From assembly GCA_049840435.1 (NCBI GenBank), contig JASGKY010000044.1, forward strand, positions 131,664-195,663: a stretch of 64,000 nucleotides of DNA. Direction: 5' to 3'. Below are positions 35,011 through 40,347 of the stretch, piece by piece. Within the stretch, counting starts at the first letter, position 1. Every line of letters begins with the position of its first letter. A program made the position numbers and the translations under genes. Origin of the DNA: Verrucomicrobiota bacterium. GTDB lineage: Bacteria; Verrucomicrobiota; Verrucomicrobiia; Limisphaerales; JADLHS01. Under the pieces are notes generated by a model, which did no database searches, was not told the origin of the DNA, and saw only the letters and a program-made list of their open reading frames with translations.

Positions 35011-35143
35011 AAAAAATTTGGCTTAAACAAGGGCGCAAACGCTAACCGGCTTTGCCTGACCCGGTCAAACGCAAAAAACGGTCGTGTGCGTCGACTGCCA
35101 GCTTCGGATTGACTTCCCGGCGCGGCTGCCAAATCTTCGCCCG

Positions 35144-35632
35144 GTGTCAGAATTGCTTTGGTTTGTGGCGCATACCAAGCCACGACGGGAAAAGAAACTT
35201 TTAGAGTTTTGCGAGCGGCAAGCCATCGCCGTAACCCTTCCGTGCTACGCGTCTTCACACAAATACCGCGGCAAATCCGTTGTGTTCCAGAAGCCGTTGT
35301 TTCCGGGCTACCTCTTTTTGCAGCTTCGTCTAGGGGAGATTGCCACCGTCCGCCAGAATGATCACGTTGCCAACCTGCTCGAAGTATTCGATCAAGCTAC
35401 CTTTGCCCGGCAGCTCTTCGAAATTCTTCGCGCGCTCGAGTCCGGGTTGGAAGTTCGGCTGGCTCCGACCATCGAATCCGGAACGCAAGTACGCATCCGA
35501 TCCGGTCCATTGCAAGGCGTTGAAGGCTTGGTCGAGTATCGTCAGGGCCACACCACTGTCATTCTCCGGCTTGATTTCATCAATCAGGCGGCAGCTGTCC
35601 GCATGTCAGTGGAGGAACTCGAAGTCATTTGA
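35144..35632 (+). CDS. NusG-paralog transcription antiterminator (RfaH/UpxY/LoaP-like)
   Basis: WFVAHTKPRREKK, PLFPGYLF (NGN domain); GTQVRIRSGPLQGVEG (KOW). GTG start at 35144. Confidence 0.9.
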   Translation: MSELLWFVAHTKPRREKKLLEFCERQAIAVTLPCYASSHKYRGKSVVFQKPLFPGYLFLQLRLGEIATVRQNDHVANLLEVFDQATFARQLFEILRALESGLEVRLAPTIESGTQVRIRSGPLQGVEGLVEYRQGHTTVILRLDFINQAAAVRMSVEELEVI

Positions 35633-35743: not shown

Positions 35744-35786
35744 CGTGGCGCTCTTTGAAAGATACGGGCCGCAAGCCCGTCAGTGT

Positions 35787-35991
35787 TGTCATCAAATGCA
35801 GGGAACGCCGTGAGATTCGGCGACGGTTGCGCCACTGTATCGGATTACGAACTCCCAGAAGCCACTGCGGGTCACGCAAGTGCGGGCCGCGGGAAGGCGG
35901 GAGTGAGGTTTGAAGTCCGGAGTCAGGATATCGGTTTGATGGCACTCGTCCGCTCGCTCCAATTGGAGCGGGCACTTCTCCGCAAAGAGAA
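35787..35991 (+). ncRNA. Cobalamin (B12) riboswitch
   Basis: AGGGAA..GTGAGATTC..CGGTTGCGCCACTGTA; AGCCACTG..GGGAAGGC; B12 box GAGTCAGGA; closing stem TGTCATCAAA (35787-96)/TTTGATGGCA (35935-44); L5 TTGCG complementary to CGCAA in hairpin TTCTC-CGCAAA-GAGAA (35976-91); BtuF-like gene downstream. Confidence 0.93.
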
Positions 35992-36034
35992 GGATGAGGC
36001 CAGCCCATCACGCTGTTTGTGGTGGGACTCGTTT

Positions 36035-36078
36035 ATGCCTTCATTTTCGTTTTGCGGAAGATGAAGGCGTTTTTGTTT
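36035..36078 (+). terminator. Riboswitch expression-platform intrinsic terminator
   Basis: ATGCCTTCATTTTCG-loop-CGGAAGATGAAGGCGT followed by TTTTGTTT, between the aptamer and the first CDS. Confidence 0.8.
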
Positions 36079-36227
36079 AAAGCCGAGGTGACAAGGTCGA
36101 GGGCCGTAAGGGCTCGACTTCGCACTTTGCCCCTCACATTTCGTCGTTTTTCTTCCGCGCTGGTCTCTCTGAAACCAAAACCCATTCCGGCCGCCATCCG
36201 CGTCCGGAACTCAGCAGAAAGATCAGT

Positions 36228-36911
36228 ATGAAAAAGCTCCGTTCGTTTCGTTCGTTATCGCTGGCCGTCGCCAGCGGGTTCGTCATTTTCTCCGCCTCCG
36301 CCGCCACGTTTGATGACGTGCAATACTGGGTCGGCTCCGGTGCCAACAAAGCGGCCTTCGTCATTGATTGGAATGATGGCAAATCCGCCGAATCGCTCCT
36401 GTGGGGCTATCGTTGGGATGGAGCCGCGACTGGGTTGGATATGTTCCAAGCTGTGGTTAATGCTGATTCACGCCTGTATGCACATGTCGGCAGTTACGCG
36501 TGGGGCACAGCGATTCTTGGCATCGGCTTCGACCTGAACGGCAACGGTAACTTTGGTGTGACGCCAGCACTGAGTTTCAACAGCGGCGGATTGTTCAGTT
36601 CCACCAGTCCGAACGATGCGCGTGTCTCGGTGGAAGCCGGCGATCACTATGTTGAAGGCTGGAACACTGGCTACTGGGAATATTTCAACAAATCTAGCGC
36701 TGTGGACGCTTGGGCTTCGGCAAGCGGGGGTATCACTGACCGAGTGCTTACCGATGGCGCATGGGACGGATTGAACTTCAACCTCGGGTTCGCTTGGCCT
36801 GGGGCTACCCCCAGCGAACCGATCGCAGTCACAGCTGTGCCTGAACCCAGCGCGCTCGCGCTGATTTCCCTTTCCGCACTTGTGCTGACATGCGCCCGTC
36901 GCAAACCATAA
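36228..36911 (+). CDS. PEP-CTERM surface protein, putative cobalamin-binding
   Basis: Signal peptide; C-terminal [24 protein letters not shown]; first gene under the B12 riboswitch; YW.Y...G....L.DG segment recalls DUF4430/transcobalamin-like domains (from memory). Confidence 0.85.
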   Translation: MKKLRSFRSLSLAVASGFVIFSASAATFDDVQYWVGSGANKAAFVIDWNDGKSAESLLWGYRWDGAATGLDMFQAVVNADSRLYAHVGSYAWGTAILGIGFDLNGNGNFGVTPALSFNSGGLFSSTSPNDARVSVEAGDHYVEGWNTGYWEYFNKSSAVDAWASASGGITDRVLTDGAWDGLNFNLGFAWPGATPSEPIAVTAVPEPSALALISLSALVLTCARRKP

Positions 36912-38368
36912 TTTGCGCCCTGGGACTGGTCGGCGTGCTTAACGCGTCGGCCAGTCCGTTCGCCACGGAAGTCGTGCGTGCGTCCGGCACGTTCGGTCCG
37001 GTCCCGTACCATGATCCCAACTCGGTGCTTCGGGCGCCGGCAACGTCGTTCCGCGATTTCTTCGGCGTCACTGCCCGCGTGAAGTTGGTGGAAGCGGCCT
37101 ACTACTTGGCGTCGACCAATACGGGGTTGCTCACGACCAATCTCATTCTCACGGTGGGAGCGGGGGATGAAATCATTGTGCGCTTTGATTCGCCGATTCA
37201 GGATGATCCGGCCCATCCATATGGCGTGGACTTGCTCGTGTTTGGTAATGCCTTCTTCACCCCAAACCAGTTCGTCAACGACAACACCGACATGGGAGCG
37301 TGTGTTCTCAACGGCCCAATTTTCTCCGAGCCGTTGAAAGTTTCCGTCAGCCCCGGATTCACCGGTCAGCTCGGCGAAATCGCCAATGATCCCGACACGT
37401 GGCCATGGTATCGCTACGACAACGGTCCGTTTGCGGACAGCGCATTTCCCACGCAAGCTTATCAATGGAATCGTGCGACGACGAATTGGTCGAGTCAGCT
37501 CATGGATTTCACCAAGCCGGTGAATCCTGCCCTGCAATCCCTCTTTACCGCTGGCGGCCTCACGGCGGCGGACGGTATTGATTTGTACGCTGGCGCGGGC
37601 GGTGGCACGGGATTCGATCTGCGCGAATCCGGCTTTGCGTGGATTCAATACGTCAAAGTTGAAGGCGTTGATCCGGATTTCAGCGATGGCGAGGTGGATG
37701 CTTTCGCTGCCGTGCGTTCGATGCACATCGGTGACACGCTATCCATCGCGCCGGAAAACCTTGCGCGCAACACCGCCGTCTTGTTTTTCCAGAACCCTAG
37801 TGCGGAAACTGAAACCACCGTTTCGCTCGCATTCGCTGCGGTCAGTGGCCTAGCGCAAGTTTTCACCGCGCCGCTGACGAACTGGAGCAGCTTCGCCGCA
37901 TTGCCGGGGACGGTGCGTACGGCGGTGCAATTGAATTTCACCCCGCTGCTCGGCACCACGCCAGTTACGTTTACCGCTGACCTTGCGTTGTCCGCAGGCA
38001 CAAATTATTTCGGCAATGGGAGCGACCTGCTGGTACTCCAATCCAGCGGCACGAACTGGACCGCGCGGCCGTTCACTTATCACAGCACTAATCAACAGGT
38101 GCGGGTCGCGGGACTCACCAATTTTTCTGCGTTCGTGGTTGCGCAGTTTACTGCCCCAACTTTGCAACTGGCGGCCAACGGGGCAGATTACAACATCCGC
38201 TTTACGCCGGTGGCGAGTCTGACGCACACGCTGGAACGTTCCACCAACCTGATGCATTGGTCGGCGCTGGGTTCCTTTATTGCGAGTAACGCGTTGCCCG
38301 TCGTTCTCACGGATGACGCCGCGCCGACTACCAAAGCTTTTTACCGTGTAAGGCTTGATCAACCATGA
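36890..38368 (+). CDS. Secreted protein with BtuH-like domain and C-terminal 'STNLxxW..FYR' domain
   Basis: Signal peptide; LTVG...IIVRFD.PI.D...DLLVFGNAF...SEP..VSVS...GFDL...YVKV resembles Bacteroidetes B12-locus surface proteins (from memory); tail [10 protein letters not shown]...AFYRVR. Confidence 0.7.
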
Positions 38369-39192
38369 CGATGTCTGTCGCGAGTCGAAGGACAAACGTC
38401 GAGGGCCAGCCAGCCCTCGTCCCGCGCGCTTTTGGCCCTCGATCGTCGACCTTCGGCCATCGACTCGGTGCCTTCACGCTCATCGAGCTGCTTGTCGTCA
38501 TTGCCATCATCGCGATGCTGGCGGCGCTGTTGCTCCCGGCACTGGCCCGTGCCAAGGCCAAAGCCAAACACACTCAGTGCCTCAGCAACCTTCACCAGAT
38601 GGGCCTCGCTGCGCAGATGTATGTTGGCGATCATGATGGTTTGTTTCCTGTCGCCTATTATGCTGCGATGGAGAATGGCCTAATGGTTTCTTACGCGTGG
38701 GATTTGACCACCATTGAAAGCAGTCCGAAACAGGTCGTGCCCGGTGTGCTCTGGCAGGGGCAAACGGCGATGGCCATTCATCAATGTCCGGCATTTACCG
38801 GCGGAGCGAATTGGGCCAGCGACCCGTTCACGGGCTACAACTACAACACCAGCTTCCTTGGCCACGGCCAGTTTGAGAACATTCCCGAGCCCGCCAAAAT
38901 TGCCGCTGTGAAAAATCCCGCGGCCACCGCGCTTTTCGGTGATGGTGGTTACTCCGCTGGTGCGAATAAATTCATGCGCGCGCCATGGCCAAATCCCGGC
39001 GATCAAACCTTCAGCGGCCGCTGGGCGGGCACCCAGGCGTTCCGGCACCAAAAGCGCACCAGTGTTGCTTGGGTGGATGGTCACGTTGAATCGTGGCGAC
39101 ACCGCTTCGCTGACAACAAAAATGGCGCAGCGAACGTCGCGCCCGATACCGGGTTTCTCTCGGCCGATAATTCGCTCTATGATCTCGAGTGA
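38365..39192 (+). CDS. Prepilin-type N-terminal cleavage/methylation protein (DUF1559-like, H-X9-DG motif)
   Basis: [59 protein letters not shown]. Confidence 0.92.
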
Positions 39193-39568
39193 TTCCAGCA
39201 TAGATGCGGCGCAGTGTCCGCTGTGTGGCCGGGCTAACGAGTGTCAGCTCTGCTCCGTGGCGGCTTACAAAGGTCCGTGCTGGTGCATGAAAGTGACAAT
39301 TCCCGAGGCCTTGCTGGCGCGCCTGCCGGCAGAACTGCGGAACAAGTCGTGTATTTGTCGTGCGTGTGTCATGGAATTTCATCGCGCCAAGGAAGGTGAA
39401 GTCGCCGGGTCAAAGATCCGGCCCGGCGACTTTTATTTCGACAACGGCCTGATGGTTTTTACCGCGGAATATCATCGGCGGCGCGGCTACTGTTGCGGCA
39501 ACAACTGCCGCCATTGCCCCTATCAGCCCGACCCGATGAAACTCACGTTTGCTCCGACCGCTGCATGA
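39179..39568 (+). CDS. Cysteine-rich CWC domain fused to a DUF5522-like domain
   Basis: [11 protein letters not shown]....GPCWC...SCICRAC followed by [35 protein letters not shown] at 39179 overlaps the pilin-like gene end. Confidence 0.82.
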
Positions 39569-40347
39569 TGAGTTCAACCCCGCAACGCATCGTCTGTCTC
39601 TCGGCCGAGGCGGCGGATTGGCTCTGGCGACTGGGAGCGTGGGACGCGGTGGTGGGTGTAACCGCCTACTTTGAACCACCGCCCAGCGCGGCGTCCAAAC
39701 CGCGCGTCAGTGGTTTCAGTTCCGCGAGCCTGACGCCTATCTTACAATTTTCGCCCGACCTCGTCGTCACGTTCTCCGATGTGCAAGCCGGGATTGCTGG
39801 CGCGCTGGTAAATCACGGTGTTCCCGTGCTGGCGACCAACCAACGCACCCTTGCCGAAGTCGAAGCCACGCTAGCGTTGCTGGCGCGCGTGGTGGGGTGT
39901 GAAACTGTCGGAGAAAGACTTCGGGGCGAATTTCGGGAGAAGCTATCACCCGTTGTCGTTGCTGCCCGACCGCGGGTATATTTTGAAGAGTGGGATAATC
40001 CACTAATCACGGGCATCGCGTGGGTGAGTGAGTTGATCGAGCGGGCTGGTGGTATGGATGTCTTTGCAAAACTACGGCATCAACGCGCTGCGCCCAGCCG
40101 GGTCATTTCTCCTGAGCAAGTGCGCGTCGCTAATCCTGAAATAATCTTGGCCTCTTGGTGCGGCAAGCCCGTGAACAAGACCGTATTTCAATCACGCCCC
40201 GGTTGGATGGAAATCTCCGCCGTGCGGAACGATCGTATTTATGAAATTCCCAGCGCAGACATTTTGCAGCCGGGATTTCGGCTTATTCAGGGCTACGAAG
40301 CCATGAAGCAATTCATCAAAGCGTTTACGCCCCAACCTGCCGCTTGA
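39565..40347 (+). CDS. BtuF-like cobalamin-binding protein (no signal peptide evident)
   Basis: PQRIVCLSAE..LGAWDAVVGV, PDLVVTFSDVQ, RPRVYFEEW, PEIILASWCGK, AVRNDRIYEI..DILQPG; translationally coupled. Confidence 0.87.
   Translation: MMSSTPQRIVCLSAEAADWLWRLGAWDAVVGVTAYFEPPPSAASKPRVSGFSSASLTPILQFSPDLVVTFSDVQAGIAGALVNHGVPVLATNQRTLAEVEATLALLARVVGCETVGERLRGEFREKLSPVVVAARPRVYFEEWDNPLITGIAWVSELIERAGGMDVFAKLRHQRAAPSRVISPEQVRVANPEIILASWCGKPVNKTVFQSRPGWMEISAVRNDRIYEIPSADILQPGFRLIQGYEAMKQFIKAFTPQPAA

Follow-up and report, generated by a model that had tools for sequence, protein, structure and literature searches.

The DNA stretch analyzed here (hereafter the window) covers 64 kb of a Verrucomicrobiota genome from the order Limisphaerales (GCA_049840435.1, contig JASGKY010000044.1, positions 131,664 to 195,663) and contains a five-gene operon behind a cobalamin riboswitch. 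Import of vitamin B12 across the outer membrane is, in the textbook case, carried out by the TonB-dependent receptor BtuB. There is no TonB receptor in the operon that the window's riboswitch heads, and the constant part of the operon, as judged from its relatives, is a type IV pilin-like protein that no described system matches. Our comparisons support the view that this cassette is real and conserved, that it is linked to B12 in both directions, and that it alternates with a TonB receptor behind the riboswitch. We lean toward a reading in which the operon encodes pilin-dependent capture and import of B12 in place of BtuB, with exported binders and a dedicated pilin operating on shared pilus/type II secretion machinery. 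This reading is based on the presence of the B12-dependent enzyme MetH, the absence of a match to the B12 synthesis protein CobS, the alternation of cassette and receptor, and the tie between pilin and riboswitch across lineages.

The riboswitch and the genes it heads

A search with cmscan against Rfam placed a cobalamin riboswitch aptamer (RF00174) at 35777..35953 of the forward strand, with a score of 67.3 bits (E 1.9e-14) that is above the gathering threshold of 31.5 bits. It is the sole Rfam match within the window. The aptamer is followed at ~36035..36078 (+) by an intrinsic-terminator-like hairpin with a stem of 12-14 bp and a U-run, recognized from the sequence and a ViennaRNA fold, which is predicted to act as the switching expression platform. 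Five open reading frames (ORFs) then follow on one strand, each overlapping the next (36228-36911, 36890-38368, 38365-39192, ~39179-39568, and 39565-40347). An initial annotation, made from the DNA letters, had described a full cobalamin riboswitch with terminator, five genes with overlapping coding regions, and no BtuB, BtuC, or BtuD in the operon or the window; all three statements hold, and the TonB-barrel and FecCD (BtuC-type permease) matches of the source genome (G000; 6.0 Mb, 83% complete) all lie on other contigs. Named homologues of the cassette proteins come from Pedosphaera parvula, Limisphaera, and metagenome-assembled genomes of Limisphaerales.

The riboswitch was then used as a marker across 61 Limisphaerales genomes, consisting of G000 and 60 relatives, most of which are incomplete and related to one another. 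It was found in 55 of the 61, in 49 of them once. Outside G000 there were 59 matches, of which two lie at contig ends and 57 were examined. Thirty-six of these loci contain an H-X9-DG prepilin together with an exported protein bearing a C-terminal STNLxxW/FYR tail (FYR protein), seven contain a cassette gene cut by a contig end, seven a lone TonB receptor, five nrdA, and two were uninformative. The conservation on which the initial proposal depended is thus found in 36/57 loci, and the 36 complete and seven truncated cassettes make 43 cassette loci. A PEP-CTERM-type first gene is present in 21 of the 36 complete cassettes and absent from 15, and in 15/36 the cassette is reduced to one FYR protein and the pilin. 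Two cassette types can be distinguished. Type 1, that of the window, has a BtuH-like FYR protein and occurs in 8/61 genomes, and type 2 occurs in 41/61, with an FYR protein in which one domain is weakly lectin-like; no genome with both types was found.

The receptors that take the place of the cassette are not uniform. For four of the six complete ones the BtuB model is the best-scoring profile, although its cut-off is not reached, and the other two are of another TonB type. Orthologues of these receptors are found in 6/61 and 2/61 genomes, and none was found in the cassette-headed genomes, including G000. The gene glmM lies convergently downstream of three of the seven receptors, nine of the 43 cassettes, and the operon of the window, so that receptor and cassette share a chromosomal site in those cases.

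The genomes appear to need B12 from outside. MetH is encoded in 57/61 genomes, including G000, and own synthesis was rejected as an explanation because CobS was found in 0/61 (other cob genes were not searched). A separately regulated btuBFCD was rejected for G000 as well. Its only other cobalamin riboswitch (106.5 bits; G000:C5:30485-34839) heads a ribonucleotide reductase alpha/beta pair, as labelled from the translations, a link between riboswitch and nrdA that recurs in five relatives. No FecCD permease was found in G000 at E≤1e-20 (the genome being 83% complete), and its single weak FecCD match is a Zn/Mn ABC-3 permease away from the window's contig. Across the order, FecCD permeases were detected in 5/61 genomes, and in none of the eight that bear a receptor, although MetH is nearly universal and CobS was not found. 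The initial annotation had the cassette apparently replacing both the TonB and the ATP-binding cassette (ABC) importer; the first half is supported by the alternation behind the riboswitch, and the second, as a specific replacement, falls with these permease counts.

Two sequences in these comparisons stood apart. A weak riboswitch match (36.6 bits) in genome G030 (locus L086, G030:C778) precedes genes unlike those of the rest of the order and may point to bin contamination, and record L004, titled uncultured Bifidobacterium, carries the full five-gene cassette under an organism label that looks wrong.

The reciprocal comparison started from the pilin. Among the best 80 of 148 metagenome loci encoding pilin relatives, some of which are near-duplicates, 43 extend at least 4.5 kb upstream, and 41 of these have a riboswitch upstream of the pilin orthologue as detected with a profile built from the relatives' riboswitches. 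All 11 distant riboswitches that were re-checked with Rfam pass. A receptor profile had no match in the same-strand ORFs of the 80 loci. Among the distant loci, the tail on the binder domains may be PEP-CTERM or dockerin or may be missing, and some of these loci have cobU, cobT, cobS, or btuR as neighbors. In a phylum-wide sample of 300 genomes, where eight candidates were scored per genome and the pilin count is a lower bound, the pilin occurs in at least eight genomes of other classes, with a riboswitch upstream in 7/8 and a best BtuB-model score of 80 bits. The co-occurrence with B12 riboswitches that had been put forward for checking in DUF1559 pilins is borne out for this pilin in both samples. 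The pilin is tied to the riboswitch across lineages while the binder domains and their anchors swap. Two pilin loci are arranged otherwise: at L116:5351-8437 an AraC-like gene (read by eye) precedes a B12-type pilin and a BtuF-like gene, and neither a riboswitch nor a binder lies upstream, and the pilin locus L119 is without a riboswitch.

The dedicated pilin and the exported proteins

Gene 3 (38365..39192, +) encodes a prepilin of 275 aa of the H-X9-DG/DUF1559 type. Pfam assigns it an N_methyl domain (25.5 bits) and DUF1559 (PF07596, 28.4 bits), the latter over profile positions 3-43 of 268 only (41 positions), and the literal H-X9-DG motif is present as H228...D238 G239. These features agree with the initial assignment as a DUF1559/H-X9-DG prepilin-like protein. 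TIGR04294, the H-X9-DG prepilin-like family alongside PF07596, is absent from its NCBIfam matches. By sequence, the N-terminal helix can be aligned with type IV pilins and GspG of solved structure, and for the C-terminal domain no solved relative came up. Gene 3 shares with other PF07596 proteins the class III signal, a GFTLIELL-type helix, and the H-X9-DG motif. These proteins are present as dozens of paralogues per genome, whereas the subfamily of gene 3 is single-copy (460 bits compared with at most 110 for paralogues) and tied to B12 loci. The riboswitch upstream of its orthologues supports the assignment of gene 3 to a B12-dedicated subfamily. In a tree with 61 prepilins of G000, the type 1 and type 2 B12 pilins each form one clade (support 0.997 and 0.999). 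No published function for DUF1559 prepilins was found in the literature searched. G000 encodes machinery on which such a pilin could operate, with five secretin matches and 15 T2SSE-family ATPase matches, and it encodes an exosortase (PF09721, 141.9 bits).

Gene 1 (36228..36911, +) encodes an exported PEP-CTERM protein of 227 aa that is likely a surface B12 binder, as predicted from its AlphaFold model, Foldseek matches, and homologues. Its C-terminus consists of VPEP, a hydrophobic stretch, and RRK. The profile scores are borderline, with 20.0 bits in Pfam, just under the cut-off of 20.7, and 16.1 for TIGR02595, just over the cut-off of 16; the motif, transmembrane helix, and basic tail are all in place, so that the initial PEP-CTERM label is retained. 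The AlphaFold model, built from an 87-sequence alignment, has a predicted local distance difference test (pLDDT) score of 91.5. Foldseek ranks 1-9 for this model are intrinsic factor, transcobalamin, and the bacterial look-alike 3U7Z, and comparison with isolated beta domains gave probabilities of 0.96-1.00, template modeling (TM) scores of 0.67-0.74, and a best E of 0.032. We therefore predict for this domain a fold similar to that of the beta domain with which transcobalamin/intrinsic factor binds B12, and an earlier guess that it is BtuH-like was dropped because the predicted fold points elsewhere. Gene 1 differs from transcobalamin, intrinsic factor, and haptocorrin in its identity of 6-12%, large insertions, lack of an alpha domain, and PEP-CTERM anchor. 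A PDB sequence search with the gene 1 alignment returned nothing meaningful. Of 11 genome loci that encode a relative of gene 1, five are from Bacteroidota. Three of these were annotated; all three contain a TonB receptor, two contain a DUF5074 (BtuG-type) gene, and one holds a protein that matches the BtuH structures 8BLW and 7BIZ.

Gene 2 (36890..38368, +) encodes an exported protein of 492 aa with no Pfam or NCBIfam match at E≤0.1. Based on hhalign, a structural model, and a tail hidden Markov model (HMM), we divide it into a distant BtuH-like N-domain (~22-278), a beta-sandwich middle domain, and an FYR tail (~421-492). The model (pLDDT 80.8) has two beta-rich domains, with the N-domain less certain. 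The N-domain aligns at 99.9% (hhalign) with a sister family, A5, of PEP-CTERM proteins that head many relatives' cassettes, and the two best PDB matches of the A5 profile are the BtuH-domain chains 8BLW (E 1e-5) and 7BIZ (E 0.017). A more direct comparison, of a broadened profile against a set of 82 Bacteroidota ORFs, gave E 1e-4 to 1e-8. We predict that gene 2 carries a distant BtuH-like domain, with an alignment to BtuH that is too weak for mapping B12-contact or Ca-binding residues. BtuH2 binds B12 with picomolar affinity and is required if uptake is to be efficient (PMC8941943).

The last 70 residues of gene 2 (window 38150-38368) follow the pattern L.W...G..Y.LQ.STNL..W......FYR and end in ...STNLMHW...FYRVRLDQP. 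The initial annotation had read this STNLxxW/FYR tail on a secreted protein, and an iterated HMM places it at the C-terminus of ~187 ORFs of G000. By analogy with the C-terminal domain of the type IX secretion system (T9SS), the FYR tail may be a lineage-specific sorting domain. The idea that the three sorting routes define the system was rejected: the motifs are real but incidental, since in other loci the same binder domains end in PEP-CTERM, FYR, or dockerin or have no tail, and 15/36 complete cassettes are without a PEP-CTERM gene.

Proposed mechanism, alternatives, and known systems

In the proposed mechanism, B12 would repress transcription at the terminator, and the operon would be transcribed under B12 limitation. 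The exosortase would anchor the gene 1 product and the FYR tail would serve as an export signal, so that the surface-anchored products of genes 1 and 2 could capture corrinoids at the cell surface. The pilin would be processed and become a minor subunit of a pseudopilus or pilus, where it would likely carry B12, or a B12-loaded partner, across the outer membrane and thereby do the job of BtuB. Retraction through the secretin would bring B12 into the periplasm, and the BtuF-like and CWC proteins encoded by genes 5 and 4 would act in the cytoplasm. The initial annotation had likewise proposed a corrinoid-capture system. The conservation of the cassette, its link to B12, and the resemblance of two exported proteins to known B12 binders speak for that part, while binding of B12 by the pilin itself, or its role in an uptake machine, is something that we infer.

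Several observations weigh against pilin-dependent import. The evidence for it is all genomic or predicted, and the relatives and metagenome loci are not independent samples. G000 is only 83% complete and has 11 TonB-barrel matches, none of them on the window's contig. Other TonB receptors occur in G000 and in 15/43 cassette genomes with scores of 93-174 bits against the BtuB model TIGR01779 (best in G000, 139); these overlap the scores of riboswitch-headed receptors (135 bits in G043, 117 bits in G037), and thus an unregulated receptor could be at work. G030 has a riboswitch-headed receptor together with a type-2 FYR match elsewhere (G030:C253), the frame length of which is similar to that of copies in G039 and G036 that do not lie at riboswitches. 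The operon contains no assembly or motor gene. The type 1 and type 2 pilins together form one split with a support of only 0.21, and a common origin of the two could not be shown. No Foldseek match of gene 1 reached E≤0.001. For gene 2, direct PDB sequence searches gave no match and the BtuH link is indirect, via A5; hhalign to one BtuH protein reached only 5.6%, and in the Atlas a TM of 0.51 to a Bacteroidota YncE cluster stands beside closer neighbors in Armatimonadota and Planctomycetota.

Three other explanations were considered. In one, which we regard as unlikely, the pilin is an export or display adaptor for the B12-binding proteins, and B12 crosses via an unregulated TonB receptor or a porin; the TonB receptors just described would allow this. 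The co-variation of pilin type with the type of the adjacent FYR protein in the order (type 1 BtuH-like, type 2 lectin-like) is consistent with an adaptor, as is the suggestion that a pseudopilin induced by its substrate in Verrucomicrobiota takes part in secreting enzymes by the type II route (PMC13274419). However, only 35 prepilin genes (23 + 12) have an FYR neighbor compared with ~187 FYR proteins, and thus FYR export needs no private pilin. The type 1 pilin is also retained where its partner bears a PEP-CTERM or dockerin tail or none at all. Moreover, 28/43 cassette genomes, including G017 (two contigs, 95% complete), are without a match to TIGR01779 at E≤1e-25, and the receptor-bearing genomes are mostly without binders, unlike Bacteroides, where binders accompany BtuB (PMC8941943).

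We give little credence to the cassette as a surface sink that hoards B12, or as an adhesion device that attaches the cell to B12 producers, with B12 entering by some other, general route. Bacteroidota are described as having B12 reservoirs at the surface (BtuJ1 preprint 10.1101/2025.07.01.662609; PMC12751083) and pili mediate attachment in Akkermansiaceae (PMC13174399), but neither function explains why cassette and TonB receptor alternate at one riboswitch or why 15/36 cassettes consist of one FYR protein and a pilin. It seems similarly improbable that the pilin substitutes for BtuF/BtuCD in transport across the inner membrane, remaining in that membrane while its C-terminal domain reaches into the periplasm. 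The scarcity of BtuC-type permeases (5/61), the BtuF-like protein without a signal peptide, and the Pfam label 'SBP_bac_10' for DUF1559 would fit this role. Yet 8/8 receptor-bearing genomes lack both FecCD and a riboswitch-headed pilin, which indicates that the pilin tracks the absence of BtuB and not of BtuC, and in one genome (G323) the gene after the pilin reads by eye like an ABC permease.

Pilin-dependent import can be set against known systems. The Btu loci of Bacteroides thetaiotaomicron (BtuB with the binders BtuG, BtuH, BtuJ, and BtuK; PMC8941943, PMC12751083) are also under a cobalamin riboswitch and also have several interchangeable exported B12-binding modules, which in the window are predicted binders; the gene 2 N-domain is distantly BtuH-like, and in Bacteroidota the gene 1 domain is encoded near TonB receptors and BtuG-type genes. 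The window's cassette differs in that it is without BtuB, BtuG, and BtuCD, has a type IV pilin-like protein as its constant part, and uses PEP-CTERM, FYR, or dockerin anchors rather than lipoprotein or T9SS tails. Other B12-binder families are covered in PMC13398666 and PMC12751083. The mucin utilization loci MUL1/MUL2 of Akkermansia (PMC12418764, PMC13174399) resemble the cassette in that nutrient uptake in Verrucomicrobiota depends on pilus-like proteins, which for the cassette we infer. They have a different pilin family (MUL2A, archaeal-type), a polymer substrate, and a core locus, whereas the cassette has a small cofactor, one member of a large paralogue family, and riboswitch control. 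No description of a B12-regulated pilin cassette was found in the literature searched, which did not cover subscription journals and supplements, and no paper in it links type IV pili, vitamin B12 uptake, and DUF1559.

The cassette matters beyond the window, as the order is common in the environment and most of its sampled members depend on B12, have no detected CobS, and have the pilin cassette behind the riboswitch. The riboswitch names the substrate and thus provides a single-gene, cheap-assay handle on the large uncharacterized DUF1559 family. The findings also bear on nutrient uptake in Verrucomicrobiota and similar phyla with few SusC/D-type systems, and they point to two new predicted B12-binding domain families and an undescribed C-terminal tail.

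The wider pilin-FYR pattern and the accessory genes

Pilin-FYR pairs are not restricted to B12. In G000, 47 prepilins have a DGH motif, and 23 of them have an FYR gene on their strand no more than 600 bp away, compared with 77/1695 length-matched ORFs (4.5%) and a permutation mean of 2.1 (maximum 9 in 10,000); these genome-wide counts rest on crude ORF calls. Other prepilins (12/48) and PEP-CTERM genes (11/48) are also enriched beside FYR genes. Twenty of the 23 pairs, in 19 loci, were taken further, and 63 chosen proteins were scanned (59 from those loci and four from the FecCD locus). Glycoside-hydrolase-type domains are present in 9/19 loci, and no TonB-receptor family matched among the 63 proteins. 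At G000:C2:77900-87500 a prepilin and an FYR-tail DUF3344 protein precede MotA/ExbB and a CobN/Mg-chelatase-like gene that is fragmented in the assembly, divergent from cbiMQ/ABC and nikR, in what looks like a heme- or metal-uptake locus. At G000:C43:180100-186600 an FYR protein and a prepilin precede DUF4920, PepSY-TM, an ABC ATPase, and DUF4857, an iron-uptake-like arrangement. In Bacteroidota, heme- and iron-uptake loci of this kind contain TonB receptors. Behind a further prepilin, at G000:C5:35458-39405, come an exported protein rich in His, a heavy-metal-associated domain, and SCO/CusF-like genes (read by eye), and this may be a copper-uptake version.

Alginate induces one pulG-like pseudopilin of Verruconatronum, which has 67 homologues (PMC13274419), and mucin uptake by Akkermansia requires pilus genes (PMC12418764, PMC13174399). 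A tentative generalization, which we would not yet bet on, is that H-X9-DG/DUF1559 pilins are substrate-specific subunits of a general TonB-independent outer-membrane import system in bacteria of the Planctomycetes-Verrucomicrobia-Chlamydiae type. One shared pilus/secretin machine would then serve many pilins, each of which, with an exported binder (FYR-tail or PEP-CTERM), would select one nutrient, as in the B12, heme-like, iron-like, and many glycan loci. If true, pilin and binder pairs would be the functional counterpart of SusC/SusD pairs.

The last two genes of the operon are optional accessories. Gene 4 (~39179..39568, +, start codon inferred) encodes a Cys_rich_CWC and DUF5522 fusion (Pfam E 7.7e-15 and 3.6e-19), as originally labelled, which is likely a cytoplasmic metal-binding protein. 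Gene 5 (39565..40347, +) encodes a BtuF-like class III binding protein (Peripla_BP_2, E 3e-27) that scores 37 bits with the BtuF model, far under the cut-off of 234. Read by eye, gene 5 and eight homologues have no hydrophobic stretch before the first conserved strand, in line with the original description of a binder without a signal peptide, and the protein is likely a cytoplasmic corrinoid binder. Both genes had been counted as parts of the system, a view that we abandon, as CWC-DUF5522 is present in 15/36 complete cassettes and the BtuF-like gene in 2/36. A CWC protein is also found in the cbi cluster of Sulfurospirillum (PMC7755780), after one riboswitch-headed receptor, and in an nrdA locus, which makes it a general accessory of corrinoid loci. 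Directly upstream of the riboswitch, at 35084-35632, the window encodes a UpxY/RfaH-like NusG paralogue with no polysaccharide operon behind it.

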